Positions 48,109 to 64,000 of a stretch of 64,000 bases of DNA are shown piece after piece. A program made the position numbers and the translations under genes. The notes beneath the pieces were generated by a model. The model was not told the origin of the DNA and did not search any database. It saw only the letters and a program-made list of their open reading frames with translations. Numbering within the stretch: position 1 is the first letter of the stretch; each line of letters begins with the position of its first letter. The stretch comes from an uncultured Verrucomicrobiae bacterium (GTDB taxonomy: Bacteria > Verrucomicrobiota > Verrucomicrobiia > Chthoniobacterales > Chthoniobacteraceae). The stretch covers positions 384,001 through 448,000 of the forward strand of contig CAVYKI010000006.1 in assembly GCA_963769025.1 (NCBI GenBank), written 5' to 3'.

Positions 48109-48271
48109 GGGTCAGTGAGTATGCCCCCGTGTGGCTTAGAGCGGAAGTAGGCGTTTGGCATCGCTCTGATGCCGGGGCGGGATAAGCGACGCATCGACAT
48201 GGCCAACCCGGGGGCAGTTCGCGCCAATATTCGCGTGGACGCCAGGGCGGGCGGTTTGGATTCTTCCGCCG

Positions 48272-48823
48272 ATGAAAAAGCTCCTCCTTCCTCTCGTTGC
48301 GTTCGGACTCTGCATTCCCGCCGCCCGCGCGGAAACTCCCAAGCCCGCTGCTGCCAGCCAGGCATCACAACCGGCCTCGAAATTCAGCACCGAGTACGAA
48401 GGACGCGCTTACAGCTTTCCAGACGAGGCATCGCTCGCGAGATGGAAGGCGGATCGCGAGGCGAGCATCTACCAGCAAATCGGCGGCAAGCCCTCGATGG
48501 ATGCCGCCATCGAGATTTTCTACAAAAAGGTGCTCGCAGACAGCCGCATCAAGCACTTCTTCGAGGACGTGGACATGGTGCGCCAGCGGACGAAGCAGAA
48601 CCAGTTTCTCTCGGCGGCGTTTGGCAGCCCTGTGCCGTACGAAGGCAAGGATCTGCGCAAGGCGCACGCGAAGCTGCCCGGCCTGAACGACAGCCATTTC
48701 GACGCTGTCGCCGAGCATCTCCAGGCGACGCTCACCGAGCTGAAGGTGAAGAAGGAACTCATCGACAGAATCATGGCCATCGCCGGGAGCACCCGCGCGG
48801 ACGTGCTGAACCGGACGAAGTAG
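48272..48823 (+). CDS. Group I truncated hemoglobin with signal peptide
   Basis: SIYQQIGG, FYKKVLAD, FF, proximal His in LRKAH, HFDAVAEHL; N-terminal MKKLLLPLVAFGLCIPAARA. Confidence 0.9.
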   Translation: MKKLLLPLVAFGLCIPAARAETPKPAAASQASQPASKFSTEYEGRAYSFPDEASLARWKADREASIYQQIGGKPSMDAAIEIFYKKVLADSRIKHFFEDVDMVRQRTKQNQFLSAAFGSPVPYEGKDLRKAHAKLPGLNDSHFDAVAEHLQATLTELKVKKELIDRIMAIAGSTRADVLNRTK

Positions 48824-48894
48824 TCCGGCGCATCGTCTTCGGGCGTCGCGCCCCGGCCTTGCACGCGGGGCGTTTCCCCGTGAAAGTCCGCGCC

Positions 48895-51800
48895 ATGAAG
48901 CTGCGCTTTTTCCTCCCGTTGCTCGCTGCATGCCTTCCGCTCCATGCCGAGGAGCCGGATTATTTTCCTGGGGTCGCGAAACTGATCGAGGACCGCTGCC
49001 TCGATTGCCACACTGCGGATGACCCGGATGGGAAGCTGGTGATGGAGCGGCATGAGGACATCCTGAAAGGCGGGGAAAGCGGGGCGGTGGTAACGGCGGG
49101 GAAGGGCGGCGAGAGCCTGCTGGTGAAGTATCTGCGCGGCGAGGTGGAGAAGGACGGAAAGAAGAGATTCATGCCGCCGGGCAAGCGCGAAAAGCTGACG
49201 GCCGACGAGATCGAGATGTTCGTGAAGTGGATCGATGCGGGCGCGAAGCCGCCACAGCGCGCGATGGAAAAAAAGATCGTGGAGGTGCCGAAGGTGCAGC
49301 CCAAGGGGACGCCGCGCGTGCCGGTGAATGCGCTCGCCTTTTCGCCGCAGGCGAAGCTCGTGGCGGCGGCGCACGGCACGGTGGTGGAACTCGTGGATCC
49401 GGCTTCGCAGGCGGTGGTGAAGCGGCTCGAAGGGCACCGGGGTGCGGTGAATGCAGTCGTTTGGTCGGCGGATGGCACGATGCTGTTCGCGGCGTCGGGC
49501 GAGCAAGCGATTGAGGGCGAGGTGCGGCAGTGGAACGTCTCGGAGGCGAAGTTGGCGCGCATATTCACGGGACACCGCGACATGATTTTCGCGGTCGCGC
49601 TTTCCCCGGACGGGAAGACGCTCGCGACCGGGAGCTACGACCAGAAGATCAAGCTGTGGAATGTCGCGGAGGGGACGGAGCGGAAGACTTTGGGCGGGCA
49701 TAACGGCGCGGTGTTCGGGCTGGCGTTCCGGCCCGACGGGAAGCTGCTCGCGAGCGCGAGCGCGGACCGCACGGTGAAGCTCTGGGACGTGGCCAGCGGC
49801 GAGCGGCGCGACACGCTGAGCCAGCCGACCAAGGAGCAATTCGCCGTGGCGTGGAGCGCCGACGGGAAGCGGCTGGCGGCGGTGGGAGCGGACAACCGCA
49901 TCCGCGTGTGGCAGGTGTCGGCCGACGCGAAGGAGACGACGAATCCGCTCGTGGTCGCGCGGTTCGCGCACGAGCAGCCGATCCTGCGGCTCGTGTGGAG
50001 CGCGGATGGCGCGACGATGCTGAGTTCCGCGCAGGACGGCACGGTGCGCGTGTGGGATGCGGCGGAGGTGAAGGAGCGCATGCTGCTGGAGAAGCAGCCG
50101 GATTGGCCGACGGCGCTGGCGTTTTCCGGCGATACCGTGGTGACCGGGCGCGCGGATGGGACGGTGGCATTTTACGATGCGAAGACGGGGAAGGTGATCG
50201 TGGCGCCGAAGAGCGGCGCGGTGGAGAAATGCGGACATGAGATGCGATCGAGGAAGATTTTCTGCCAGGCGAAGACGGCGATGGCGAAGCCGGCTTCAGC
50301 GCCGAAGGGGCCGTCCGTGTCGGGCATTTCGCCGCGTGGCATCGAGCGCGGGCCGATGTTGGAACTGAAACTGACGGGAGCAAATCTGCCGGCGATCCTG
50401 TCGGTGAAATGTGAAGATGCGCGGGTGCGGGTGTTCACGGGCTCGCCGGAAAAGGACGCGGTGCCGGTTGTCATCTCCACGCCGGGGAATCTTCCGCGCG
50501 GCGGGTATGCGATCGTCGTGAGCGGTGCGGATGGGAAGGAAATCGGGCGCGCCACGCTGCGCATCGAGGACATCACGGTGATCGACATTCCTGCCGCGTC
50601 GGCGATGCAGAAGCTCACCGCGCTGCCGGTGAATGTGTGGGGGACGATTGCCAAGGCGGGGGAGAGCGACCGGCATGAGTTCGAGGCGAAGGTGGGCACG
50701 ACGCTGATTTTTGACTGTCAGGCGAAGGCGCTCGGCTCGAAGGCGAATGCGGTGCTCACGCTCGTGGACGCCGCGGGGCGCGTGCTGGCGACGGACAATA
50801 ATTTCGATGCGAGCGGCGATCCGTTCATCGCGCACAAGTTCGCCGCGGATGGCCGCTATGCGATCGTGGTGGGCGATGCGATGATGACCGGGAGCGCTGA
50901 GCACTTCTACAACCTGACCGTCGGTGCGCTTCCGTTTGTGACCGCGCTTTTTCCGCTGAGCGTGCCCGCGAATTCGGAGACGAAAGTGGAACTGGTCGGC
51001 TACAATCTTCCCGCCGATCCGGCCTCGCGGACGGTCGCGGTGAAGGCCGGTGCGAGCGGAACGGCACCGGTCAAACTGGATGGGCAGAAATTCCGCAGCC
51101 GCGCCCCGGCGGCACTGGCTGTGAGCGAGGAGCCGAATTTTGTGGCTGCCGCGGGATGCGACACGGTGAGGGGCGCGCAGAAGCTTGACGTTCCATTTTC
51201 CGTGAACGGCCGTTTTCTCAAGGCGGGAACGGCGGAGCATTTCCGTTTCACGGCGAAGAAGGGCATGAGCTACGCGATCGAGACGGAGGCATCGCGCCGC
51301 GGTTCGCCGGTGGACACGAAGATCTCGGTGCTTTGGCCGGATGGGCGGCCGGTCGAGCGATTGCTGCTGCAGGCGGTGCGCGACAGCGCGATCACATTTC
51401 GGGCGATTGATTCCGCGGTGCCGGACGTGCGCGTTGAAAACTGGCGCGAGATGGAACTGAACGAGCTGATGTGGATGCAGGGCGAGGTGGCGAAGATTTT
51501 CCGGATGCCGGAGGGGCCGGACAGCGGTTTTGCGTTTTACGCGAACGCCGGGAAGCGCATCACGCACTTCGACACAAGCGCGACAGCGCACTCGGTCGAT
51601 GAGCCGTGCTACATCGTGGAACCGCATCCGCCGGGTGCGAAGCTGGTGGCAAACGGGCTGCCGGTCTTCACACTGAATTTCGAGAACGACGACGACGGCT
51701 CGCGCAACGCGGGCAGCGACTCGCGCCTGCTCTTCACCGCCCCGGCGGATGGCGACTACGTCGTGCGCGTTCAGAACAGCCGCGGTGACGCGGGCGAGCG

Positions 51801-52551
51801 GTTCATCTACCGGCTCATCGTGCGCGAGGCGCGGCCGGATTTCGCGGTGAAATTCACGGAGTCCGCGAGTGTGGTGAATGTGGGAAGCGGCGCGGCGTTC
51901 ACGCTGACGGCGGAACGGAAGGATGGATTTGACGGTGACATCGTTTGCGAAATCACGGGCGTCCCGGCGGGTTGGCATGTGACGAGTCCGCTGGTGATCC
52001 AGGCGGGGCATCTGCAGGCGAAGGGAAGCATCTCGGCGCTGCCGGGCGCGGGGAAGTGGACGGCCGCGAAGATTTCCGCGACGGCGGACATTGACGGGAA
52101 GCGGGTCTCGCATCCTGCCGGCGAAATCGCGGGCGTGAAGGCGGAGGGCGAGCCGCCGATCGTGGTGTCGTTACAGCCGGCGGGTGCGGATCACAGTGCG
52201 CCTGCATTTCAGCGCGACGCAGCGGCGGTGCCGCGCGAAATCACGATCTCGCCGGGTGAGACGGTTTCCGCGTGGGTCGTGCTGAAGCGCGGGAGCGCGA
52301 AGGGCGCGCTGCGCTTCGATGTGGAGAATCTCCCGCACGGAGTCGTGGTGGACAATCTCGGGCTGAACGGCATCACGCTGCTGGAAGGGCAGGACTCCGG
52401 TGAGATTTTCCTGAAGGCTGCACCGTGGGTGCCGGAGACGGATCGGCTCGCGTATGTCGTGTGCCGCGAGGCGGGCAAGCAGGCGTCGCTGCCGGCGCTG
52501 CTGCACGTGCGGCGGAAGGGTCTGGCGGCGGACGCAAATGCGAAGCCCTGA
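48895..52551 (+). CDS. Secreted planctomycete cytochrome c / WD40 / PPC-like domain protein (1218 aa)
   Basis: CLDCH...MPP...WIDAGA; repeated GH...SPDG...WD/WN; PPC-like DDDG, DSRLLFTAPADGDY. Confidence 0.9.
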   Translation: MKLRFFLPLLAACLPLHAEEPDYFPGVAKLIEDRCLDCHTADDPDGKLVMERHEDILKGGESGAVVTAGKGGESLLVKYLRGEVEKDGKKRFMPPGKREKLTADEIEMFVKWIDAGAKPPQRAMEKKIVEVPKVQPKGTPRVPVNALAFSPQAKLVAAAHGTVVELVDPASQAVVKRLEGHRGAVNAVVWSADGTMLFAASGEQAIEGEVRQWNVSEAKLARIFTGHRDMIFAVALSPDGKTLATGSYDQKIKLWNVAEGTERKTLGGHNGAVFGLAFRPDGKLLASASADRTVKLWDVASGERRDTLSQPTKEQFAVAWSADGKRLAAVGADNRIRVWQVSADAKETTNPLVVARFAHEQPILRLVWSADGATMLSSAQDGTVRVWDAAEVKERMLLEKQPDWPTALAFSGDTVVTGRADGTVAFYDAKTGKVIVAPKSGAVEKCGHEMRSRKIFCQAKTAMAKPASAPKGPSVSGISPRGIERGPMLELKLTGANLPAILSVKCEDARVRVFTGSPEKDAVPVVISTPGNLPRGGYAIVVSGADGKEIGRATLRIEDITVIDIPAASAMQKLTALPVNVWGTIAKAGESDRHEFEAKVGTTLIFDCQAKALGSKANAVLTLVDAAGRVLATDNNFDASGDPFIAHKFAADGRYAIVVGDAMMTGSAEHFYNLTVGALPFVTALFPLSVPANSETKVELVGYNLPADPASRTVAVKAGASGTAPVKLDGQKFRSRAPAALAVSEEPNFVAAAGCDTVRGAQKLDVPFSVNGRFLKAGTAEHFRFTAKKGMSYAIETEASRRGSPVDTKISVLWPDGRPVERLLLQAVRDSAITFRAIDSAVPDVRVENWREMELNELMWMQGEVAKIFRMPEGPDSGFAFYANAGKRITHFDTSATAHSVDEPCYIVEPHPPGAKLVANGLPVFTLNFENDDDGSRNAGSDSRLLFTAPADGDYVVRVQNSRGDAGERFIYRLIVREARPDFAVKFTESASVVNVGSGAAFTLTAERKDGFDGDIVCEITGVPAGWHVTSPLVIQAGHLQAKGSISALPGAGKWTAAKISATADIDGKRVSHPAGEIAGVKAEGEPPIVVSLQPAGADHSAPAFQRDAAAVPREITISPGETVSAWVVLKRGSAKGALRFDVENLPHGVVVDNLGLNGITLLEGQDSGEIFLKAAPWVPETDRLAYVVCREAGKQASLPALLHVRRKGLAADANAKP

Positions 52552-52764: not shown

Positions 52765-54681
52765 ATGAGCTGGAGCCGGATTTCCGCAAGTCGCCGTTGG
52801 CGGCGCGGGATTTCCGGGCTGCTGGCGGTTTTGTTCGCCGCGGCGACCGGAGCGGCATTTGCCGCGCCGAAACCGGTTAAGAAACCTACGCCGGTACCCG
52901 TGCCTGCGGGTCAGCGCCCGCCTGCGAAGGACGACCTGTATGAAGGTCCGTCCGCGGCTGCGGCTGCGAAACGTGGGGCACCAAAGCCCGGTGCGGAGAA
53001 TCATCTCAGCGCGCCACTTTCGCCGGGGCCGAAGTACGCGGACGCGTGGCCTTCCGAGAAGCGGAAGCCGGAGCAGGATCTGCAACTCACGCACGAAGGC
53101 GAGAACCGTGCGCAGGCGATCGCGGCGTTTGCCGAAGGCCAGATGGCGGACGAGAAGGGCGACCCCGACAGGGCGCTCGAAGCGTGGAAGCGCGCAACGG
53201 ATCTCGACCCGGCGAATGCCGGACTCGCGGTGAAGGTGGCGACTGAGTTGGCAAAACGGAACGAGCCTGCCGAGGCGATCCGCGTGCTGAAGGATTCCAT
53301 CGCGGCGGCGCCGAAGGAGCCGGCAACCTACATTTACCTCGCGCAGGTGTACGCGAAGCACCTGAACAAGCAGGAACTCGCGATCCAGATGGCGCAGAAA
53401 GCGCTGGAAGTGGCGCCGGATTATTTTGGGGCGTGGGCCGCGCTTTATGAACTGCATGCCCAGTCGGGTGAGAAGGAGAAGGCCTCGGGATTGATCGAGA
53501 AAGGGCTGAAGAGCACGTCGAAGAACCCGGCTTTCTGGCTGATGTTCGGGAGCTACCTGCAGAAGGTTTTCCTGAAGGAGGACGGGACGGCGACGCCGGA
53601 GGAATTGCGGCAGATGGAGGTGGCATTCCGCAAGGCCGCCGAGCTGAAGCCGGGCGATGCGTCGGTGCTCGCGCAGACCGGCGATTTTTTTGTCCTGGCC
53701 AGGAGGAGCAAGGAAGCGCTCGAATTTTACGAGCGCGCGGTGAAGCTGAACCAGCCGGCACGTGACGAAGCCACGAAAAATCTTCGCGAAAAATACATCC
53801 GTGCGCTGGCTGCGAATGACCGCAAGGCCGAGGCGATCCCGCTCCTCGAACAGTTCGCGCGCGACCCGAACGAGGCGCTGCGGCAGGACTTGTTCGAACT
53901 GCTGGGCGAGCTTTACGAGCAGAACGGCGAGACGGACAAGGCGATCGAGCAATACAAGCGCTCGCTCGTGCTGGACGCGGGGGAGCCGCGGAATCACTTC
54001 AATCTCGCCAACATGCAGCTCCGCGCGAAGCGGGGCGGTGACGCGGTGGAGACGATGGAGAAGGCGCGGCGGAAATTTCCGGACCGCCCCGACGTGACGC
54101 TCGGGCTCGCGCTCGCATTGAGCGCGGCGAAGCGGCACGCCGATGCGATGAGGATGTTCGCGAATGTGGTCGAGGAGGCGAAGGGCCGGAACGAGGGGCT
54201 GATCGACGGCGAGTTTTATTTCAAGTGGGGCGCTGCTGCCGAGCAGGCGGGGCAGGTGGACAAGGCCGCCGAGCTTTTGCGGAAAAGCATTTCGCTGAAT
54301 CCCGAGGCGCCCGAGGCCTACAATTACCTCGGTTACATGTGGGTGGACCGCGGCCAGAACGTCGAGGAGGCGGGACAACTCATCCGCAAGGCGCTGGAGA
54401 TCAGCCCGGACAACGGCGCATATCTGGACTCGCTCGGCTGGTATTATTTCAAGGCGGGAAAATTCGAACAGGCGAAGAAGGAACTGCTCACCGCGCTTGA
54501 GAAGCTGACCGAGGAGGATGCAGTGGTGTTTGATCATCTGGCCGACGCCTGCGAGCAACTGGGTCACCACGCGGAGGCGATCAAGTACTGGGAGCGCGCG
54601 CTGAAGCTCAAGCCCGACGAACCGGAGAAGATCGAGCGGAAGTTGGAAGCTGCGAAGCAGAAGCAGGCCCCGGGCAAGTAG
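52765..54681 (+). CDS. Exported TPR repeat protein
   Basis: Signal peptide; many TPRs; NYLGYMW, ALEISPDNGAYLDSLGW, DHLADA. Confidence 0.9.
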   Translation: MSWSRISASRRWRRGISGLLAVLFAAATGAAFAAPKPVKKPTPVPVPAGQRPPAKDDLYEGPSAAAAAKRGAPKPGAENHLSAPLSPGPKYADAWPSEKRKPEQDLQLTHEGENRAQAIAAFAEGQMADEKGDPDRALEAWKRATDLDPANAGLAVKVATELAKRNEPAEAIRVLKDSIAAAPKEPATYIYLAQVYAKHLNKQELAIQMAQKALEVAPDYFGAWAALYELHAQSGEKEKASGLIEKGLKSTSKNPAFWLMFGSYLQKVFLKEDGTATPEELRQMEVAFRKAAELKPGDASVLAQTGDFFVLARRSKEALEFYERAVKLNQPARDEATKNLREKYIRALAANDRKAEAIPLLEQFARDPNEALRQDLFELLGELYEQNGETDKAIEQYKRSLVLDAGEPRNHFNLANMQLRAKRGGDAVETMEKARRKFPDRPDVTLGLALALSAAKRHADAMRMFANVVEEAKGRNEGLIDGEFYFKWGAAAEQAGQVDKAAELLRKSISLNPEAPEAYNYLGYMWVDRGQNVEEAGQLIRKALEISPDNGAYLDSLGWYYFKAGKFEQAKKELLTALEKLTEEDAVVFDHLADACEQLGHHAEAIKYWERALKLKPDEPEKIERKLEAAKQKQAPGK

Positions 54682-56476: not shown

Positions 56477-56553
56477 ACGGCGAGTAACTCAATTGGTAGA
56501 GTAGCGGTCTCCAAAACCGCCTGTTGGGGGTTCGAGTCCCTCCTCCCGTGCCA
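56477..56553 (+). tRNA. tRNA-Trp (CCA)
   Basis: GCGGT CT CCA AA ACCGC; T loop TTCGAGT; 3' CTCCCGT-G-CCA; 5' arm ACGGCGAG has one extra base (likely indel). Confidence 0.93.
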
Positions 56554-56571
56554 CCCTGACAGCCAAAGCCC

Positions 56572-56784
56572 ATGTTCGCAAAGACCACCAATTTCATCCG
56601 CGAGGTTAAGACCGAGCTCCAAAAGGCGACGTGGCCTTGGGACCCGAAGGAAAAAGCCTTCGGGGCCAAGTACAAGGAACTCATCGATTCCACCATCGTG
56701 GTCATCATCGCGATGCTTATGCTCGCAGCCATCGTGACGGTTTTTGACTTTGCGCTGATGCAGATCAGCCGCCTCCTTTTCTAA
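56572..56784 (+). CDS. secE: Preprotein translocase SecE
   Basis: [15 protein letters not shown] plus one TM; between tRNA-Trp and nusG. Confidence 0.93.
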
Positions 56785-56794
56785 ATTTATACCC

Positions 56795-57364
56795 ATGACC
56801 GAAGAGCAAAAACGCAAGCAGTGGTATGTCGTCCACGTCCTCTCCGGACAGGAGAAGAAGGTGCACGACAACCTCGTGAAGCGCATCAAAACGGAGGAAA
56901 TGGGCGACTACGTCTACGAGGTCCTGCTGCCCACCGAGCGCGTCTCCGAGGTGAAGCGCGGCAAGAAGACCGAGACCACGCGCAAATTCTTCCCCGGCTA
57001 CATCGTCATGAACATGTGGCTCATCGACGAGAACAAGCAGCTCGTGGACAAGACGTGGTATTTCATCAAGGACACCGCCGGCGTCCTCGGTTTTGCCGGC
57101 ACGAAGGATCGTCCGATCCCGATGCTGCAGAAGGAAGTGGACGCCATGCTCGCGCAGGTCCGCGCCAGCGAGGAAAAGGCCCGCCCGAAGGTCGAATTCA
57201 CGGTCGGCGAGATCGTGAAGGTCGCCGACGGCCCATTCCAGAACCAGACCGGCGTCGTCGAAGAAATCGACCCCGAGCGCGGCAAGCTGCGCGTCAGCGT
57301 CAGCATCTTCGGCCGCGAGACCCCCGTGGACCTCGAATACTGGCAGGTCGAACGCAACGCATAA
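56795..57364 (+). CDS. nusG: Transcription factor NusG
   Basis: [33 protein letters not shown]. Confidence 0.97.
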
Positions 57365-57431
57365 CTTTACGCACTGATCCCAAAACCCGGGCGCTGAAGC
57401 CTCTCTTCGCCCACCAAAAAACACACTCACC

Positions 57432-57858
57432 ATGGCAAAAGAAATCGTCGGTTCAAATCAAACTCCAGATCCCAGCAGGCGCCGCCAACCCCGCACCGCC
57501 GATCGGCCCCGCGCTCGGTCAGCAGGGCGTGAACATCATGGCCTTCTGCAAGGAGTTCAACGCACGCACGGCCAAGCAATCCGGGGACATCCTCCCGGTC
57601 GTCATCACCGTCTTCAAGGACAAGAGCTTCACCTTCATCACCAAGCAGCCCCCGGCGAGCTCGCTGATCAAGAAAGCGCTCAACCTCGCCAGCGGCTCGA
57701 AGGAGCCGAACAAGGTGAAGGTCGGCAAGCTGACCAAGAAGCAGGTCGAGGAAATCGCCAAACGCAAGATGCCCGACCTCAACGCCCGCACCACGGCAGC
57801 CGCGATGAAGATCATCGCCGGCACCGCGCGCCAGATGGGCGTGGAGGTCGAAGCCTAA
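57432..57858 (+). CDS. rplK: 50S ribosomal protein L11, frameshift near 57452
   Basis: [38 protein letters not shown]...KMPDLNA...GTARQMG; 141 aa joined. Confidence 0.97.
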
Positions 57859-57880
57859 GCGCGAGCGGCCAGACAATCTC

Positions 57881-57915
57881 GAAGGGGGCGGACGAAAGTC
57901 CGCCCCTTTTCGTTT
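57881..57915 (+). terminator. Intrinsic terminator after rplK
   Basis: ggggcggac-gaaa-gtccgcccc then ttttcgttt. Confidence 0.8.
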
Positions 57916-58088
57916 ATCAGGTGGGTAGAAGGAACAGCGGGCGCAACTATCAATCCGAGGCTGCTTCCCGTCTGCGGTGGGTGAAATACTATGCAGTGCT
58001 GGCTTGTCTTTTCGGGTTGCGAGTTGCATTTTCGCGATGCCGTATCCGGTGCGTCGGCATCGTGCTGTTTCCATATTCGCCATCTCCC

Positions 58089-61000
58089 ATGCCGAACGAC
58101 CATTCACCCGTGCCCAAGGACTTCAAAGGGGTCATGGTCTCGAGCACGTTCACGGATGTGGAGGATCACCGTGCGGCGCTGATCAAGATCATCAAGGCCC
58201 ATGGGTTGACCGAATTGGCGATGGAGAATGATTCGGCGAAGCCCGATGTCGATGTCATCGAGTCCTCGCTTGGCATGGTCCGGGATGGCGCTGCCTACAT
58301 CGGGATAATCGCAAAGAAATACGGCCAAACGCCCAAGTGCCCGAAGCGCAACTCGGGAAAGGTTTCGATCACCGAATTGGAGTTCGACGAAGCCCAACGG
58401 CTCGATCGGCCCATTCTGCTCTTCATCATGGGAGAAAAGCACCTCGTGCTCGAATCCCAGATCGAGACCAAGGCGGCGAACAAGAGGAAGCTGAACGCCT
58501 TCCGTGAGCGCGCGAAGCAGATGGGGCCGGATTCGGAGGTCCACCGGGTTTACGCCACTTTCAATAGCCTGGAGGAGTTCAAGGAGAAGGCTGCGCAGTC
58601 CGTCGCCGAGTTGCGTCGCTACCTCGACGAGCAGGACGACGCTGAGTCCAAAGCCGACGACATCCCCGACGAGGAGAAGAAAGCCGAGAAACGCGATCCC
58701 GACCCGATCCCGAAGCCGCCCGCATTCTACGCTGAGCCGGCATACCTCGGTTCACACGAGTTCGTCGGGCGGAGGGATCAGTTGGAGACTTTGAATGAAT
58801 GGGCGCTGCCGGCGGACTCGCATCCGGTGCTGCTCTTTGAAGCCATCGGCGGCACGGGCAAGAGCATGCTCACGTGGGAGTGGGTGCGGAAACACGCTCC
58901 CGCGGTGCAGCCGTGGGCGGGGCGCTTCTGGTATTCCTTTTACGAGCGCGGGGCCATCATGGCCGACTTCTGCCAGCGGGCGCTCGCCTACATGACCGGC
59001 CAGCCGCTGGAGGAGTTGCGGAAAAAGAAGACCACCGAACTCGCCCCGCAGCTCCTGCATCAGCTCCAGGCCCGGCCGTGGCTGCTCGTCCTCGATGGCC
59101 TCGAACGCGTGCTCGTGGCCTACCACCGCATCGATGCCGCGCAACTCCGCGACGAGGAAGCGGGCCAGACCGACGAGATCGCCCAGCGCGATGTCTGCGC
59201 CGCCATCCGCCCGGAGGACGACGAACTCCTGCGGCAGCTCGCCGCCGCCGCGCCGTCGAAGCTCCTGCTCACCTCCCGGCTCATTCCCCGCGTGCTGTTG
59301 AATAAAGCCAGCCAGCCCATCCCCGGCGTGCAACGCGTGCCGCTGCCCGGCCTGCGCCCCACCGACGCCGAGGCGCTCTTCGGCGCCTGCGGAGTCACCG
59401 GCGACTCGACCGCCATCCAAGCCTACCTCAAAACGCACTGCGATTGCCACCCGCTCACGATCGGCGTGCTGGCGGGGCTGGTGAAAGACTACCTGCCCGA
59501 CCGCGGAAACTTCGACCGCTGGTCCGCCGACCCCGACGGCGGCGGCCGGCTCAACCTCGCCGAGCTCGATCTCGTCCAAAAGCGCAACCACATCCTGCTC
59601 GCCGCCATCGCCGCGCTGAGCCCGGAAAGCCGCCAGCTCCTGTCAATGGTCGCGCTGCTCTCGGAGGCCGTGGATTACGAAACGCTCAAAGCTCTCAACC
59701 CGCACCTGCCGCCGGAGATCAAGAGGGTATCGGTACCGAAGAAGCCGGAAGACCACTGGCGCTGGAGAATCATGTCCGAAGAGGAAAAAGAGGAGACGAA
59801 GAAGCCATTTGAAACCTCCCTCCAGCGTCGGGCGAAGTATGAGCAGGCGATGGAGGCGCGGCTTCGATCGCCGAAGTTCCTTGCCGCGACGAAGCATCTG
59901 GCGGCGACGATCAAGGACCTCGAAAGCCGCGGCCTGCTGCAATACGACCCGCAGGCAAAGCACTACGACCTCCATCCCGTGGTACGTGGCGTCGCCACGG
60001 GGCAACTCGCGCAGACTGAAAAACAAACCTATGGCCAACGAGTCGTGGATTACTTCTCCTCGAGGCCGCACATTCCGTACGAGAAGACCGAGACGCTTCG
60101 GGATTTGAGCGACGCCCTGCACGTCGTACGCACCCTCGTTCAAATGGGACACTTTCAGGAGGCGTGTGACGCCTATCGAGGTGGCCTTGCGCGTGCGCTC
60201 CTTTTTAATTTGGAAGCGAATGTCGAGGTTGTGGCGTTACTCCGTCCTTTCTTTCCGGCCGGGTGGAACAATCTGCCGCAGCAGATGACTGAGGACGACG
60301 CTGCGTATCTGACGAACGACGCCGCAATCGCGTTGGGCAGACTTGATCAACAATCTGCAGAACTTCTTTGCTATGAAACTGCCATCCGATCGGCTCTGAA
60401 GCGCAAAGATTGGCAACCAGTCTCGGTATACCTGCGGAATTTTTCGGTGACTTACTTTCAGAAAGGCGAACTCGCGAAGGCCGATCGTTACGTGCGATTC
60501 GGGTTGGATCTCGCGCGCCTAACTGATGATGAGGATGAGGTTTTCATGACTCGCTTGCATCTCTTCGAGCAGCTTTCCCATCGGGGTCGTCTGGAAGATG
60601 CCGAGGACGTGTGGCGGTCTCTCGAAAGAATGGGCCTTGATCGCCCCCGTGCGACCTACCGTCGCGACTATGCTGAATTTCACCACGCCTACTCTCGATT
60701 TGAACAAGGTACCTTACGGGAAGACGATCTCGCCGAGACCGAGGGATTGGCTGCCAAGGGCCGGACCCGGCAACTCATCCGGTGGTTGCGGCGGCTCCGA
60801 GGCGAATGGCTAATTCAACGAGGATCATGGGAGCCGGCGGTCGAGAGTCTGCGTGAATCCGTCCAGATGGCCCGCGAAGTCGGGCAGGAAGATCCCCTTG
60901 CTGAGACGCTGCTCGCACTTGCGAAGCTCCAGTTCGGTCAGCTTGCTGAACCACGCCAAGACGCGGAGCAGCTCGGAAACGCATCCTGGATCGCGCGACT

Positions 61001-61331
61001 CGCACTCGCTGAGCTTTGGCTCGCCATCGGAGACCGAGATCAGGCGAAGAAGTATGCGCTCGCTGCTTACCAGCGGGCATGGCACGAAGGAGAGCCGTTC
61101 GTAGATCGCAACCGATTGAACAAATCCCGCGCGCTGCTGGAGCAACTCGGGGCGGAGATTCCGAAGCTGCCGCCTTACGACCCGGCCAAAGATGAAAAGC
61201 TGCCGTGGGAGGATGCTGTGGTGGTCGCCATCGAAGTACTCCGTGCCAAGAAAGCCGCCGAAGCCGCGAAGGAAGCCGCCAAGCCAAAACCAGCAGCCGC
61301 ACCCGAAAAGCCAACCGGCACCGCCCGATGA
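58089..61331 (+). CDS. DUF4062 / STAND NTPase / TPR protein (1080 aa)
   Basis: VMVSSTFTD...YIGII..KYG...SITELEFDEA; FVGR, GGTGKS, LLVLDGLE, LTSR, HPLTI, LHPVVR; helical C-terminal repeats. The 57432 start in the ORF track is an artefact of the rplK frameshift. Confidence 0.88.
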   Translation: MPNDHSPVPKDFKGVMVSSTFTDVEDHRAALIKIIKAHGLTELAMENDSAKPDVDVIESSLGMVRDGAAYIGIIAKKYGQTPKCPKRNSGKVSITELEFDEAQRLDRPILLFIMGEKHLVLESQIETKAANKRKLNAFRERAKQMGPDSEVHRVYATFNSLEEFKEKAAQSVAELRRYLDEQDDAESKADDIPDEEKKAEKRDPDPIPKPPAFYAEPAYLGSHEFVGRRDQLETLNEWALPADSHPVLLFEAIGGTGKSMLTWEWVRKHAPAVQPWAGRFWYSFYERGAIMADFCQRALAYMTGQPLEELRKKKTTELAPQLLHQLQARPWLLVLDGLERVLVAYHRIDAAQLRDEEAGQTDEIAQRDVCAAIRPEDDELLRQLAAAAPSKLLLTSRLIPRVLLNKASQPIPGVQRVPLPGLRPTDAEALFGACGVTGDSTAIQAYLKTHCDCHPLTIGVLAGLVKDYLPDRGNFDRWSADPDGGGRLNLAELDLVQKRNHILLAAIAALSPESRQLLSMVALLSEAVDYETLKALNPHLPPEIKRVSVPKKPEDHWRWRIMSEEEKEETKKPFETSLQRRAKYEQAMEARLRSPKFLAATKHLAATIKDLESRGLLQYDPQAKHYDLHPVVRGVATGQLAQTEKQTYGQRVVDYFSSRPHIPYEKTETLRDLSDALHVVRTLVQMGHFQEACDAYRGGLARALLFNLEANVEVVALLRPFFPAGWNNLPQQMTEDDAAYLTNDAAIALGRLDQQSAELLCYETAIRSALKRKDWQPVSVYLRNFSVTYFQKGELAKADRYVRFGLDLARLTDDEDEVFMTRLHLFEQLSHRGRLEDAEDVWRSLERMGLDRPRATYRRDYAEFHHAYSRFEQGTLREDDLAETEGLAAKGRTRQLIRWLRRLRGEWLIQRGSWEPAVESLRESVQMAREVGQEDPLAETLLALAKLQFGQLAEPRQDAEQLGNASWIARLALAELWLAIGDRDQAKKYALAAYQRAWHEGEPFVDRNRLNKSRALLEQLGAEIPKLPPYDPAKDEKLPWEDAVVVAIEVLRAKKAAEAAKEAAKPKPAAAPEKPTGTAR

Positions 61332-61381
61332 CGCAGCAAGAAATGCGGCTCGACTGCGAGAAGCGATTCTACGTTACACCC

Positions 61382-62683
61382 ATGCGCGCCGCATTTCTCC
61401 TCCCGCTCCTGCTCGTGATGGCTTGCGATGGGATGTGCGCGGAGGAGGGGAGGGTGCGTCCGCTGATGAAGGATTTCATCGGGCTCAATGTCCACACGGT
61501 GCAGTTCAAGCCGGAGCTGTATGCGCCGGTCACGCGGGTGCTGCGGAATTATCATCCGATCAAATGGGACTTCGGCGAGGACACTTCCGCGGCGTCGACT
61601 TTCCCGTTCGCCAGAAACCGCGTGAACTGGGCGCAGCTCTACGGAAGCTGGAAGAAGGCGGGATACCGCACGCACGCTTCGCTGATGTTCGACGACATCG
61701 CGCCCGGTGCGTGGAAGGACATCGCGCGCGATGCGAAGGCGTACGGGCTCGCGTTTGCAAAGGCGTTCGGCCCGTCCGCGAAGGAGCCGCTGCTCGAAGC
61801 GGTGGAGATCGGGAATGAGCCGGGGAAGTATGACGACGCGACTTACCGGCGGCTGTTCGAGGCGATGGCGCGCGGAATCCGCGCGGGCGATCCCGCGCTG
61901 CGCATCGCGACGTGCGCGGCGAATCTCGGGCCGAGCGGACGCTACTCGAAGAGCGTGGACGTTCTCAGCGGACTCGAAAGCCTGTGGGACATCCTCAACG
62001 TCCACTTTTACGCCGAGACCGAGCCTTGGCCGACATGGCGGCGCAGCTATCCGGAGGATCCGGCGACGAAGTTTGCGGAGAACGTGGGCCACGTGCTGAA
62101 ATGGCGCGGGGAGCACGCGCCGACGAAGGAGGTGTGGGTGACGGAATTCGGCTACGATGCTTCGACGAAGCCGGCGCCGGCGACGGGGGATTTTGCAAAA
62201 TGGGAGGGGAGCACCGAGGAGCAGCAGGCGGTGTGGACCGTGCGATCCTTCCTGCTGCTCGCGCGGCTCGGCGTGGATCGCGCGTACCTCTATTTTTTCA
62301 ACGACAGCGATGTGCCGCACCTCCACGGCAGCAGCGGCATCACGCGGAATTTTGTGCCGAAGCCCGCGTTCCACGCGCTCGCGTGGCTGCAGCGCTCGCT
62401 CGGCGAATACCGTTTCGCGCGGGTGGATCGCGAGGAGGGCGATTGTTACGCGTACGAGTTTGTCCACGGCGCGCAGCCTGGGAAGCGGGCGTGGGTCGTG
62501 TGGCGTCCCGTCGGCGAGCCGCATGTGGTGCGGCTTTTCAACGATCCGCTGCGTGTGGTCCGCGCCGAGCGCATGCCGCTGGTCGCCGGGGAAGCGGAGA
62601 AGGTGGACGTGCGCCAGGAAATCGAGGGCTACATGGCGGTGGAGGCCGCGGAACGCCCGGTGATCATCTGGCTGGAAAGGTAG
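61382..62683 (+). CDS. Secreted clan GH-A glycoside hydrolase-like protein
   Basis: Signal peptide; acid/base EIGNEP; nucleophile WVTEFGY; LNVHFY. Confidence 0.75.
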   Translation: MRAAFLLPLLLVMACDGMCAEEGRVRPLMKDFIGLNVHTVQFKPELYAPVTRVLRNYHPIKWDFGEDTSAASTFPFARNRVNWAQLYGSWKKAGYRTHASLMFDDIAPGAWKDIARDAKAYGLAFAKAFGPSAKEPLLEAVEIGNEPGKYDDATYRRLFEAMARGIRAGDPALRIATCAANLGPSGRYSKSVDVLSGLESLWDILNVHFYAETEPWPTWRRSYPEDPATKFAENVGHVLKWRGEHAPTKEVWVTEFGYDASTKPAPATGDFAKWEGSTEEQQAVWTVRSFLLLARLGVDRAYLYFFNDSDVPHLHGSSGITRNFVPKPAFHALAWLQRSLGEYRFARVDREEGDCYAYEFVHGAQPGKRAWVVWRPVGEPHVVRLFNDPLRVVRAERMPLVAGEAEKVDVRQEIEGYMAVEAAERPVIIWLER

Positions 62684-62740
62684 GGCGCGTTCGCCGAACG
62701 CGGCCCAATTCGCGGGACGGCTCGGCGAGCCGTCCCTACC
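62679..62740. repeat. REP-like GTAG...CTAC double-hairpin element
   Basis: ggtaggg...ccctacc ends enclosing cgcgttcg/cgaacgcg and gggacggctc/gagccgtccc; between convergent genes. Confidence 0.7.
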
Positions 62741-62746
62741 GGGCGG

Positions 62747-63377
62747 TCACGGCGAGTCGGGTTCGGCGGCGACGGCGGTGCGGGCGACCTTCGCGACGTA
62801 GCGGAGCGCGACCACGGCGGCGATGATTCCGACGGCGAGGAAGACGTATTCGAGCGGGTGATGCGGCCTGCCTTTGCCGACGAGCGAGGAGAGGCTGCCG
62901 TGGAAGGTCGAGCCCATCCAGACGAAGAGGCTGTTGGCCGGAATGATCGCGAGACACGTCGCGCCGAGATACGGCCAGAAGCGCACGGGCGTGAGGCCGT
63001 AGCAGTAGTTGGCGATGCCGAACGGGATCGGCACGAAGCGCAGCAGCGCGACAATCTCTCCAGCCTTCGCGGGCGACGGCCTTGTCGATGAGGCGGAATT
63101 TTTCATTGTTGCCCAGCCAGCGGGTCACGGCGGCACGCGCGAGGTGCCGCGCGATCAGGAAGTTGATGCTCGCACCGACTGCGCAGCCCAGCATCAGGCC
63201 GACCCAGCCGCGCGTGAATCCGAAGAAGAGGCCGAATGCCATGCCCAGCGGCGCGACGGGCACCATGACGAGTTGCGCGGCGACAAAGATGCCGGCGAAC
63301 GCGAGAAGCCCGAGGGCGTTCATGTCCTGGATGCTTTGCTGGAGGCGTTCGAGGGATTGGACGAGTTGTTCGAGCAT
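62747..63377 (-). CDS. TVP38/TMEM64 (VTT/DedA) membrane protein, frameshift near 63058
   Basis: GLFFG...GASINFLIARH; LLRFVP.PFGIANYCYGLT. Confidence 0.88.
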
Positions 63378-63436
63378 GTGTGGAGCGCCTTTAGAGCGGG
63401 CATCGCGCCGCGCCGCGAGCGGGAAAAACGGCGGGC

Positions 63437-64000
63437 CTACGTTCCGGGCAGCGCGATTCCCTTCACCCGGCGGTAAAGCGCGACGGCGTAACTGTCCGTC
63501 ATCCCGCTCACGAAATCGAGCATGCGCATGAGCCGCAGATACGGCCCCTCCTCGTGCGCGGCGCGGACGCATTCGGCGGGGAGCTGGCTCGCGAGCTTTT
63601 TGCTGCGCTTCGAAGCACCGTCGCCTTGCGCCGCGATGTCGTTCACGGCGCTCATGAAGACATCGAGCAAACCGCCGAGGACTTCGTAGCCGGCGATCTC
63701 GATCTGCACGCCGCGCGGGGTTGTGTAGATGGTCTCGCGGCTGTGTTTCTGGATCGCGGCGAGCGCGGCGGCGGCGGGGATGACGTCGGTGAGCGGCGTG
63801 TCGAACTTTCCGTCGAGCAGATCCTTTTCGTGATCGAGGAAAAGCGCGGTGCATTGCGAAAGGCATTCGCCGATCGCCATCGCGCGGAGCATCTCGATGG
63901 CGGCCTTGGTCGATGTCATCCCGGTCAGATCCCGCGGGTGTCTCGCCGCAGGGAGGATGGTGAGAAATGCGTCGCGCACGGTCTCGTAGCTGAGGTGTCC
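63437..64000 (-). CDS. dgt: dGTP triphosphohydrolase, C-terminal part (5' end outside window)
   Basis: EIAGYEVLGGLL, YLRLMRMLDFVSGMTDSYA. Confidence 0.85.
   Translation of the reverse strand, partial: GHLSYETVRDAFLTILPAARHPRDLTGMTSTKAAIEMLRAMAIGECLSQCTALFLDHEKDLLDGKFDTPLTDVIPAAAALAAIQKHSRETIYTTPRGVQIEIAGYEVLGGLLDVFMSAVNDIAAQGDGASKRSKKLASQLPAECVRAAHEEGPYLRLMRMLDFVSGMTDSYAVALYRRVKGIALPGT

Follow-up and report, generated by a model that had tools for sequence, protein, structure and literature searches.

DUF4062 domains have been linked to phage defence in preprints of 2026. Osinski et al. (10.64898/2026.05.01.722283) describe DUF4062 as a TIR-like NADase and report that the phage portal activates KpSwz (Swarozyc). 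Le Mouellic et al. (10.64898/2026.09.04.749371) rename the domain NIR and report NAD+ depletion together with defence for the DUF4062-Avs2 protein of Pseudomonas chlororaphis, Vulcan, and Vesta, and Ibarra-Chavez et al. (10.64898/2026.06.25.731849) describe Evangelion. In these preprints, NAD+ hydrolysis and phage defence by DUF4062 are attributed to KpSwz, PsAvs2, Vulcan, Vesta, and Eva01, and the domain is also noted for further NLR-like proteins. For STAND proteins at large, Lee et al. (Nature 2026, PMC13581612) distinguish 589 prokaryotic clades, 198 of them defence-associated, and 684 sensor clusters, and report phage-protein triggers for Avs7-21. Here we analyse the gene P0002 in a 64,000-nt stretch of DNA from an uncultured Verrucomicrobiae bacterium (contig CAVYKI010000006.1, positions 384,001–448,000), which we call the window and whose coordinates are used below. 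We propose, with a probability of roughly 0.6, that P0002 combines sensor and effector in one NLR-like (Avs-like) protein and most likely acts in abortive-infection defence against phages or other invaders.

Comparison with described systems

P0002 has its layout in common with PsAvs2, which is described as carrying an N-terminal DUF4062/NIR domain, a STAND NTPase, and a C-terminal TPR-type sensor. Like PsAvs2, it has a conserved catalytic glutamate and is a single-gene system, and by analogy its expected output would be NAD+ depletion and growth arrest. However, P0002 matches no Avs model of PADLOC and so is no Avs2 by the available profiles; the two are likened by description. In addition, PsAvs2 is reported to respond to terminase. 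A search with the sensor of P0002 finds its own family only.

The DUF4062 NADase heads of Swarozyc, Evangelion, Vulcan, and Vesta are homologous to the head of P0002; the match to the KpSwz chain 10wc_A covers ~160 residues, with the catalytic glutamate aligned. According to the preprints, these systems lack a STAND NTPase and have the head fused straight to an auxiliary, HEAT, or small ligand domain. KpSwz is activated by assembly on the phage portal. P0002 has a complete STAND module between the head and the repeats; with this full NTPase switch, its activation is expected to proceed via nucleotide-dependent oligomerisation.

The Avs families are described as having an effector-STAND-repeat architecture with mostly TPR-like sensors and with interchangeable heads like those of the P0002 family, and their sensors are reported to recognise conserved phage proteins (PMC13581612). 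In the text of that article, no member of the P0002 clade is among the tested Avs1-21, and the term DUF4062 appears in neither the main text nor seven supplement files, clade tables apart. Eukaryotic NIR-NLRs (TEP1, NWD1, NWD2, NPHP3, and TTC41) are described as combining an N-terminal DUF4062/NIR domain, a STAND NTPase, and repeats, as in P0002. They use NACHT modules and mostly WD40 repeats, and the likeness to P0002 is at the domain level.

An initial annotation of the window, made from its sequence, had considered P0002 as possibly an unclassified defence type. This part is outdated, as a DUF4062 NADase defence class was published in the 2026 preprints. Both the class with its chemistry and the eukaryotic relatives have been described before, and the mechanistic idea for P0002 is now mainstream; therefore, the gain here lies in breadth and evolutionary detail, not in a new principle. 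New here are a large PADLOC-invisible clade in at least 11 phyla, its head swaps, its occurrence as a single-gene cassette, and an apparent recombination mosaic.

The NIR domain and its catalytic glutamate

The Pfam model DUF4062 (PF13271) matches residues 15–102 of P0002 with an E-value of 6.3e-16 (58.8 bits, against a curated cut-off of 24.7), which confirms the N-terminal DUF4062 domain of the initial annotation. It is the sole Pfam hit of P0002 itself and is matched by all 46 of 46 aligned relatives. When the family profile is searched against PDB sequences, it finds the solved DUF4062 NADase chain of KpSwz (10wc_A, E 4e-22, profile positions 6–164) and the NIR chain of human TEP1 (11gz_A, E 1.8e-4).

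Conservation was counted in a family alignment of 58 sequences with 31–81% identity. Within the SITELE motif, residue E98 is invariant (58/58), in accordance with the conserved glutamate proposed earlier for this motif. Residue E96 is glutamate in 54 of the 58 sequences and R, Q, or A in the other four. In the HMMER alignment, the KpSwz stretch ..LSFTEKAFDYA.. faces ..LSITELEFxEA.. of the family. E96 faces a glutamate that is present in KpSwz too, and two glutamates two residues apart are common to KpSwz and the family.

The Swarozyc preprint (10.64898/2026.05.01.722283) names residues R18 and D71 and gives the cryo-electron microscopy construct as 15-C, E97A. Residues 5 (Arg) and 58 (Asp) of the KpSwz chain can be equated with R18 and D71 only if the numbering is shifted by 13. 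Therefore, chain residue 84 (Ala) corresponds to position 97, the mutated catalytic glutamate. By this numbering offset, we infer that E98 of P0002 aligns with the catalytic Glu97 of KpSwz. The catalytic glutamates reported for characterised DUF4062 proteins are E97 in KpSwz, E108 in PsAvs2, and E98 in Vulcan.

The STAND NTPase and the TPR-like sensor

The translation of P0002 contains every STAND motif named in the initial annotation, that is Walker A, Walker B, TSR, HPL, and LHP (Table 1). Invariant in all 58 sequences are G254, G255, G257, K258, and S259 of the P-loop region, D336, G337, E339, R340, R397, and H454, and H629, P630, and R633. These STAND motifs may be named RNBS-B, GLPL, or MHD-like.

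PH0952 of Pyrococcus horikoshii (PDB 6mfv) is the closest solved STAND protein by profile. The family profile matches chain 6mfv_A with an E-value of 6.5e-10 across the P-loop region, the helical domain with H-P-L, the winged helix with its His motif, and the TPR sensor, and the DLHPVVRG-type motif aligns with the 'HDMVR' stretch of PH0952. Unlike P0002, PH0952 is archaeal and has no NADase head, and the likeness, made up of five short stretches, is remote and discontinuous. P0002 alone gives no NTPase-family Pfam hit at E ≤ 0.01. Among the 46 relatives, the Pfam NTPase matches are to NB-ARC in 8 (weak, best 7e-6), AAA_16 in 8, NACHT in 1, and NPHP3_N in 1. By these matches, the NTPase is not firmly assignable to NB-ARC or NACHT.

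The C-terminal part had been annotated as TPR-like repeats. This description stands at the level of the family and its profile: Pfam TPR_12 is found in 16 and TPR_2 in 14 of the 46 relatives, and the family profile matches TPRs of kinesin light chain in the PDB with an E-value of 3e-8, as well as CSN2, NprR, and Rap. It does not stand for P0002 alone, which has no Pfam TPR hit at E ≤ 0.01 and, as a single sequence, only weak hits to kinesin-light-chain TPRs in the PDB (best E 0.041). An Atlas feature search with residues 640–1080 leads to TPR clusters. The effector-STAND-TPR layout proposed at the outset therefore holds, by homology. Near the C-terminus, G1001 and P1003 are invariant in both alignments, and E1041 is invariant in 46 of 46 sequences and nearly so in the 58-sequence alignment.

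A large family with exchangeable heads

A word-indexed homologue search, which covered proteins of 594–1890 residues, scored 7999 candidates, of which 1565 reach E ≤ 1e-3. The top 119 in this search are 57–82% identical to P0002, mostly over at least 95% of the length. In an exhaustive search, 4216 representatives of 50% clusters reach E ≤ 1e-3, and 1035 of them pass E ≤ 1e-30. In contigs from one genome per species, 495 of 600 pattern-matching stretches among the matches listed encode relatives, and 79 loci were kept. These 79 loci span at least 11 phyla at 44–66% identity: Acidobacteriota, Actinomycetota, Verrucomicrobiota, Planctomycetota, Bacteroidota, Pseudomonadota, Chlorobiota, Gemmatimonadota, Cyanobacteriota, Deferribacterota, and Zixibacteria. 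In a FastTree tree of 74 rows, from which rows shorter than 900 residues were excluded, the phylum label changes 25 times, against a minimum of 10 and a shuffled mean of 47.7, and phyla are mixed within well-supported clades.

The family occurs as tandem paralogues in two loci, side by side or a few kb apart: in a metagenome-assembled genome of Haliscomenobacter (L094, 4967–7993 and 13337–16360) and in Lentzea miocenica (L058, 9974–12919 and 12916–15834). Several Lentzea species have divergent copies of the family.

The same STAND-TPR core carries different heads. We scanned 31 relatives, most of them picked for a match start near query residue 200 or for an unusually great length. Their heads are SIR2_2 in four, TIR_2 in three and, weakly, in one more, a calcineurin-like phosphoesterase (metallophosphatase) in five, and PNP_UDP_1, CN_hydrolase (nitrilase-like), DUF4062 plus CHAT, and DUF4062 plus TIR_2 in one each. 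Two have a C-terminal AAA_15/21/23 ATPase extension, and three have no recognisable domain. A cyclase head (PF00211) was found in one further, separate search with the sensor segment. Head swapping on one core is the pattern of conflict-system NLRs and, as judged from the predicted domains, supports a conflict-system role for the family.

Some full-length members of ~1540 residues (P0124 and P0049; by precomputed Pfam also P0283 and P0299) have an extra C-terminal ABC-type ATPase region (AAA_23, AAA_15, AAA_21). Several defence ATPases have a region of this kind, and these members may be true fusions or merged gene calls.

Scans of P0002 against NCBIfam give no hits, and scans against PADLOC-DB 2.0.0, the AVAST/Avs models included, give no family at E ≤ 1. 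Therefore, P0002 is not among the Avs types modelled there and is Avs-like by layout.

Mosaic alleles

We compared P0002 with ten close protein relatives in windows of 40 residues. Windows in the NTPase domain (residues 241–481) are 78–100% identical, and the window starting at residue 1001 is 85–90% identical in all ten. In between, windows starting at residues 721–881 fall to 25–60% identity in eight of the ten (P0005–P0008, P0010, P0012, P0015, and P0019). The best relative differs by domain, being P0008 for the NIR domain, P0007 for the NTPase, and P0003 for the sensor. A search with residues 690–1000 alone finds just two proteins above 53% identity (74% and 66%), and all of its matches lie inside the family.

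The pattern is sharper at the DNA level. Against the metagenome locus L108, identity is 72–83% at residues 1–240, 93–97% at residues 241–420, 88% at residues 421–480, 46–60% at residues 481–960, and 73–79% at residues 961–1080. At four-fold degenerate sites of codons with a conserved amino acid, agreement with L108 is 0.83 in the NTPase domain (chance 0.45, n = 163) and 0.25 in the sensor (chance 0.27, n = 53). The synonymous distance dS (NG86) is 0.27 in the NTPase domain and 1.14 in the NIR domain, and is saturated in the sensor. The flanks of L108 are 71–72% identical to another locus of the window's genome. Likeness in the NTPase block thus greatly exceeds that of the genomic background. 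In the comparison with a second locus (L026), the conserved block comprises residues 301–540. Judged from these alignments, the blocks are recombination tracts with differing breakpoints, putatively near residues 240 and 480–540, and uneven constraint alone does not account for them.

The G+C content at third codon positions (GC3) of P0002 falls from 0.85–0.93 in the NTPase domain to 0.50–0.60 at residues 681–880 (60129–60728). The dip is also present in all six relatives tested (L108, L026, L107, L110, L003, and L004), at 0.51–0.75 against 0.77–0.92. The dip is family-wide, and a single recent transfer is therefore no explanation; the low GC3 of the sensor segment can be explained only in part. 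The sharply bounded mosaic offers a natural experiment on specificity change in bacterial NLR-like receptors, with the hypervariable residues 701–960 as the obvious candidate ligand-binding surface.

A single-gene cassette at a variable site

A blastn comparison of positions 56500–63500 with the corresponding locus (L021) of a congener, G001, gives homology at 56500–57910 (89%) and at 61363–63500 (79%), and none between. The left edge of the variable site is thus position 57910, just past the hairpin that follows rplK, and the interval in the window contains the P0002 gene alone. In G001, the same flanks (rplK and a gene for a 450-residue secreted-looking protein) enclose a different, 4.1-kb cargo of lower GC content.

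The window's genome has one DUF4062 gene. A full-length homologue is present in 2 of 24 other congeners, G015 (57%) and G001 (56%), and is missing from all 16 genomes that represent other families of the order; the remaining four matches in this survey are short weak hits on other proteins. None of 300 phylum-wide genomes (≥90% complete) has a match at E ≤ 1e-30. The two congeners carry divergent alleles at other sites. The allele of G001 itself is a 3.8-kb insert whose flanks lie 42 bp apart on contig C4 of the window's genome; therefore, the site of the G001 allele is empty in the window's genome. The allele of G015 is at a third place.

The P0002 gene is a horizontally acquired single-gene cassette, and vertical conservation is therefore ruled out. 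The initial annotation had named vertical conservation in the lineage as an observation that would speak against its reading; what is found is a gene in 2/24 congeners and 0/300 phylum genomes, with sharp cassette edges. We looked for direct or inverted repeats on the two sides, as a sign of a mobile element, and obtained short, chance-like pairs alone.

The surroundings of rplK vary in the genus. In five congeners rplK never precedes rplA, and five different gene sets follow rplK. The rplA gene of the window's genome is on another contig (G000:C3:938720-939292; compare rplK at 57433–57858 of the window). The classical rplKAJL cluster is broken in the genus, and the site past rplK is a rearrangement or insertion point.

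The cargo of G001 (L021:1733-5807, GC 49–58%) has three open reading frames (ORFs) of 372, 345, and 332 residues. The 372-residue ORF is coiled-coil-like and has weak SMC/LmuB-type PADLOC hits alone, and the 345- and 332-residue ORFs have no Pfam, PADLOC, or PDB sequence match. Because its PADLOC/Pfam hits are weak and of coiled-coil type, and PDB sequences give none, we rejected the cargo as a known defence system. Possibly, the cargo is a further accessory or defence cassette that uses the same variable site.

Proposed mechanism

Our proposal builds on the domain layout, the conservation of catalytic and nucleotide-binding residues, the NADase homology of the head, the head swapping, the horizontal spread, and the mosaic evolution described above. 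In the resting state, the STAND NTPase would keep P0002 an autoinhibited monomer. The ligand of the C-terminal TPR-like solenoid, hypervariable at residues 700–960, would be a protein of foreign and probably phage origin. Its binding would be followed by nucleotide exchange at the P-loop (K258, D336, R397, and H629), which would permit oligomerisation; this in turn would cluster and activate the N-terminal NIR/DUF4062 TIR-like domains. The clustered NIR domains would hydrolyse NAD+ via Glu98, and the infected cell would be arrested. The NADase activity, oligomerisation, trigger, and protection are inferred for P0002 solely from its relatives. The oligomerisation-activated processing of NAD that the initial annotation envisaged agrees, by analogy, with the experiments of the 2026 preprints on other DUF4062 proteins. 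Overall, that annotation was right in kind; the class it took as possibly new was already published, and the defence-island signal it looked to did not appear (see below).

If our proposal is true, an abundant clade (4216 cluster representatives at E ≤ 1e-3, at least 11 phyla) would be added to the NIR NADase immune effectors. The NIR members tested so far are all from Proteobacteria or Firmicutes, and the PADLOC 2.0 profiles miss the clade of P0002.

Genomic context and alternative explanations

Over the 79 loci, the own family is recorded in 78, and the largest other cluster of neighbours occurs in 7. The description of P0002 as a solo gene is borne out, with no other neighbour family in more than 7/79 loci, and we rejected a conserved partner gene on the same count.

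Several results weigh against a role in defence. We scanned four genes on each side of 32 loci (256 proteins) with PADLOC at E ≤ 1e-12; the 32 loci were drawn from 47 with full flanks, after 5 near-duplicate Lentzea loci and 10 more over the size limit were dropped. Just seven neighbour proteins, in 6 of the 32 loci, match PADLOC, and a complete candidate system within four genes is present in 1 of 32 (L086, PDC-M07A/B). The other PADLOC neighbours are a UvrD/GajB-like helicase (L052), a two-domain AAA+ protein (L032), and three generic ABC ATPases or methyltransferases (L041, L056, and L083). According to Le Mouellic et al. (10.64898/2026.09.04.749371), 20.0% of NIR genes have a known defence system nearby, where 3.9% would be expected; our sample of 32 loci is too small to tell the published 20% from a background of 1.5–3.9%, and PADLOC is biased to well-studied phyla. 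The lower of these background values is a published null rate, 0.0153 within 5 kb. There is no visible enrichment of known defence genes near the homologues, and the context gives no positive support. Co-localisation with defence islands, which the initial annotation had suggested as a check, thus shows no signal, with a complete candidate system in 1/32 loci.

Counted by Pfam family, the two nearest genes on each side of 36 loci (144 proteins) fall mostly under transport and metabolism or housekeeping. No family is found in more than two proteins; TIR_2 occurs twice, and PNP_UDP_1, ARPP-2, phage integrase, and IS110 transposase occur once each. In the window's genome, the upstream neighbours are tRNA-Thr, tuf, tRNA-Trp, nusG, and rplK. 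Downstream are the 450-residue secreted-looking protein, a dGTPase-like HD protein, a gluconolactonase-like protein, methyltransferases (prmA among them), and PSCyt2/PSD1 proteins. The family is present in 0 of 50,697 phage records, and it has one plasmid occurrence, of the core only (Nostoc pNsp_l, mobilizable), and one distant relative among 2.9 million viral contigs; on these counts we rejected carriage by phage or plasmid. With no PADLOC hit at E ≤ 1, P0002 has no experimentally validated family to vouch for it. Finally, the available text of the 2026 DUF4062 and STAND literature gives no activity, trigger, or phenotype for this clade.

These observations lend some weight to the idea that P0002 is an NLR-like cell-death or growth-arrest switch that uses the same NADase chemistry and responds to an endogenous or environmental cue, such as stress, development, or kin conflict. 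The homologues are mostly amid housekeeping and metabolic genes with no defence-island signal, and phage and plasmid collections contain hardly any member of the family. It is also common in soil phyla with complex lifestyles (Acidobacteriota, Planctomycetota, and, within Actinomycetota, Lentzea and Frankia), and the STAND census is reported to find defence and non-defence clades interspersed (PMC13581612). However, for a conserved physiological switch, vertical inheritance and a kept sensor would be expected, whereas the SIR2, TIR, PNP, and CHAT head swaps, the hypervariable recombining sensor, the patchy distribution, and the independent insertions in congeners are arms-race traits. We therefore regard a non-antiviral switch as unlikely.

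The chemistry of the head could also differ from our proposal, in that P0002 would be a conflict system whose head produces a nucleotide signal, in the way of Thoeris TIRs, or acts on a nucleotide substrate other than NAD+, to which older annotations as a CMP hydrolase and as nucleoside deoxyribosyltransferase-like point. DUF4062 is placed between the TIR and NDT superfamilies (10.64898/2026.05.01.722283), and the head of PsAvs2 is reported to have been annotated formerly as a CMP hydrolase, with a CMP hydrolase among its top structural hits (10.64898/2026.09.04.749371). In addition, a second nearly invariant glutamate, E96 (54/58), is next to E98 in the motif. Against this, the tested DUF4062 proteins are all reported to give ADP-ribose and nicotinamide and to deplete NAD+, and there is no conserved partner gene that would read a signal, the largest non-self neighbour cluster being the one in 7/79 loci. 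A different product or substrate thus seems rather improbable.

That P0002 is a regulatory STAND protein of the usual, vertically inherited sort (MalT/AfsR-like), or a functionless decaying remnant, is hardly credible: the gene does adjoin the tuf-nusG-rplK cluster, and its TPR part is weakly similar by profile to AfsR and MalT-type TPRs, but P0002 has no DNA-binding domain, its head is an enzyme domain with the catalytic glutamate intact, its ORF is intact with all nucleotide-binding residues conserved, and the gene is non-syntenic, sharply bounded, and absent from 22 of 24 other congeners.

Beyond the reading of P0002 as an Avs-like sensor-effector, we tentatively raise a wider possibility, which is a good deal more speculative. 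Current defence catalogues may have overlooked, in this family, a separate and very large lineage of Avs-like proteins from soil and aquatic phyla. The conserved NTPase DNA would serve as a recombination hinge that re-assorts heads (NIR, SIR2, TIR, PNP, phosphoesterase, CHAT, and cyclase) and hypervariable TPR sensor cassettes between alleles, and even between phyla. The result would be a combinatorial single-gene immune repertoire, with a trigger unlike those of Avs1-21.

Gene model and other features of the window

The ORF on the + strand that ends at 61331 has a listed start at 57432, and the ATG at 58089 gives a protein of 1080 residues. The first ~650 bases of the listed ORF overlap rplK (57433–57858, identified by the Pfam L11 N- and C-terminal domains) in a different frame and cross the hairpin at 57884–57919. 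Met1 of P0002 is aligned in 35 of 35 N-terminal sequences of relatives. The start at 58089 is correct because the upstream part overlaps rplK and Met1 aligns in all 35; the coordinates first assigned to the gene, 58089–61331, are accordingly right, and the long in-frame extension up to 57432 was rejected. We also rejected an antisense ORF at 58752–59591 as the usual high-GC artefact, third-position conservation there being limited to certain allele pairs. The features of the locus are collected in Table 1.

Table 1 Positions of P0002, its domains and motifs, and adjoining elements in the window
Feature	Position	Strand	Evidence
Terminator-like hairpin, G+C-rich, plus T-run, just past rplK	57884..57919	+	seen directly in sequence
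Variable cassette, 3.45 kb, holding the P0002 gene alone	57911..61362		blastn vs L021 (G001)
Gene P0002, NIR(DUF4062)-STAND-TPR protein, 1080 aa, intact, stop included	58089..61331	+	ORF translation
NIR/DUF4062 TIR-like domain, aa 15-165	58131..58583	+	Pfam match, KpSwz profile match
SITELE motif, aa 93-98; E98 (58380-58382), predicted catalytic Glu; E96 at 58374-58376	58365..58382	+	alignment
STAND nucleotide-binding domain, about aa 216-470; also the putative recombination-conserved block	58734..59498	+	motifs, alignment
Walker A GGTGKS, aa 254-259	58848-58865	+	translation
Walker B LLVLDGLE, aa 332-339	59082-59105	+	translation
TSR, aa 395-397, with invariant R397	59271-59279	+	translation
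CHPL (contains HPL), aa 453-456	59445-59456	+	translation
DLHPVVRG-type motif, winged-helix-like part; LHP = aa 628-630	59970..59990	+	alignment
Hypervariable part of TPR-like sensor, aa 701-960, low GC3	60189..60968	+	window identities, GC3
Conserved C-terminal end of sensor, includes PPYDPAKDEKLPWE (61170-61211)	60969..61211	+	alignments

A consensus scan of 57400–61700 did not list the hairpin past rplK, and a sigma-70-type promoter scan of the same interval gave 0 sites. In a search of sequencing runs, the share of words is 0.14 or less throughout, with no RNA run among those listed.

The dGTPase-like HD protein is encoded two genes downstream of P0002 on the − strand, at 63437–64000 and beyond (L010:3438-4790). 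It matches the PADLOC dGTPase model with an E-value of 8e-73, a model that also matches housekeeping Dgt, and Pfam HD and HD_assoc; it could be a housekeeping Dgt or a defence dGTPase. The prmA gene (L11 methyltransferase) is at L010:7203-8105, ~6 kb past rplK.

Further upstream on the + strand, positions 48169–52551 encode a 1460-residue protein with many WD40 repeats. Its Pfam and PDB hits are of WD40 type only and leave the N-terminal 380 residues and the C-terminal half uncovered. The next gene, also on the + strand (52765–54681), encodes a TPR protein of 638 residues.

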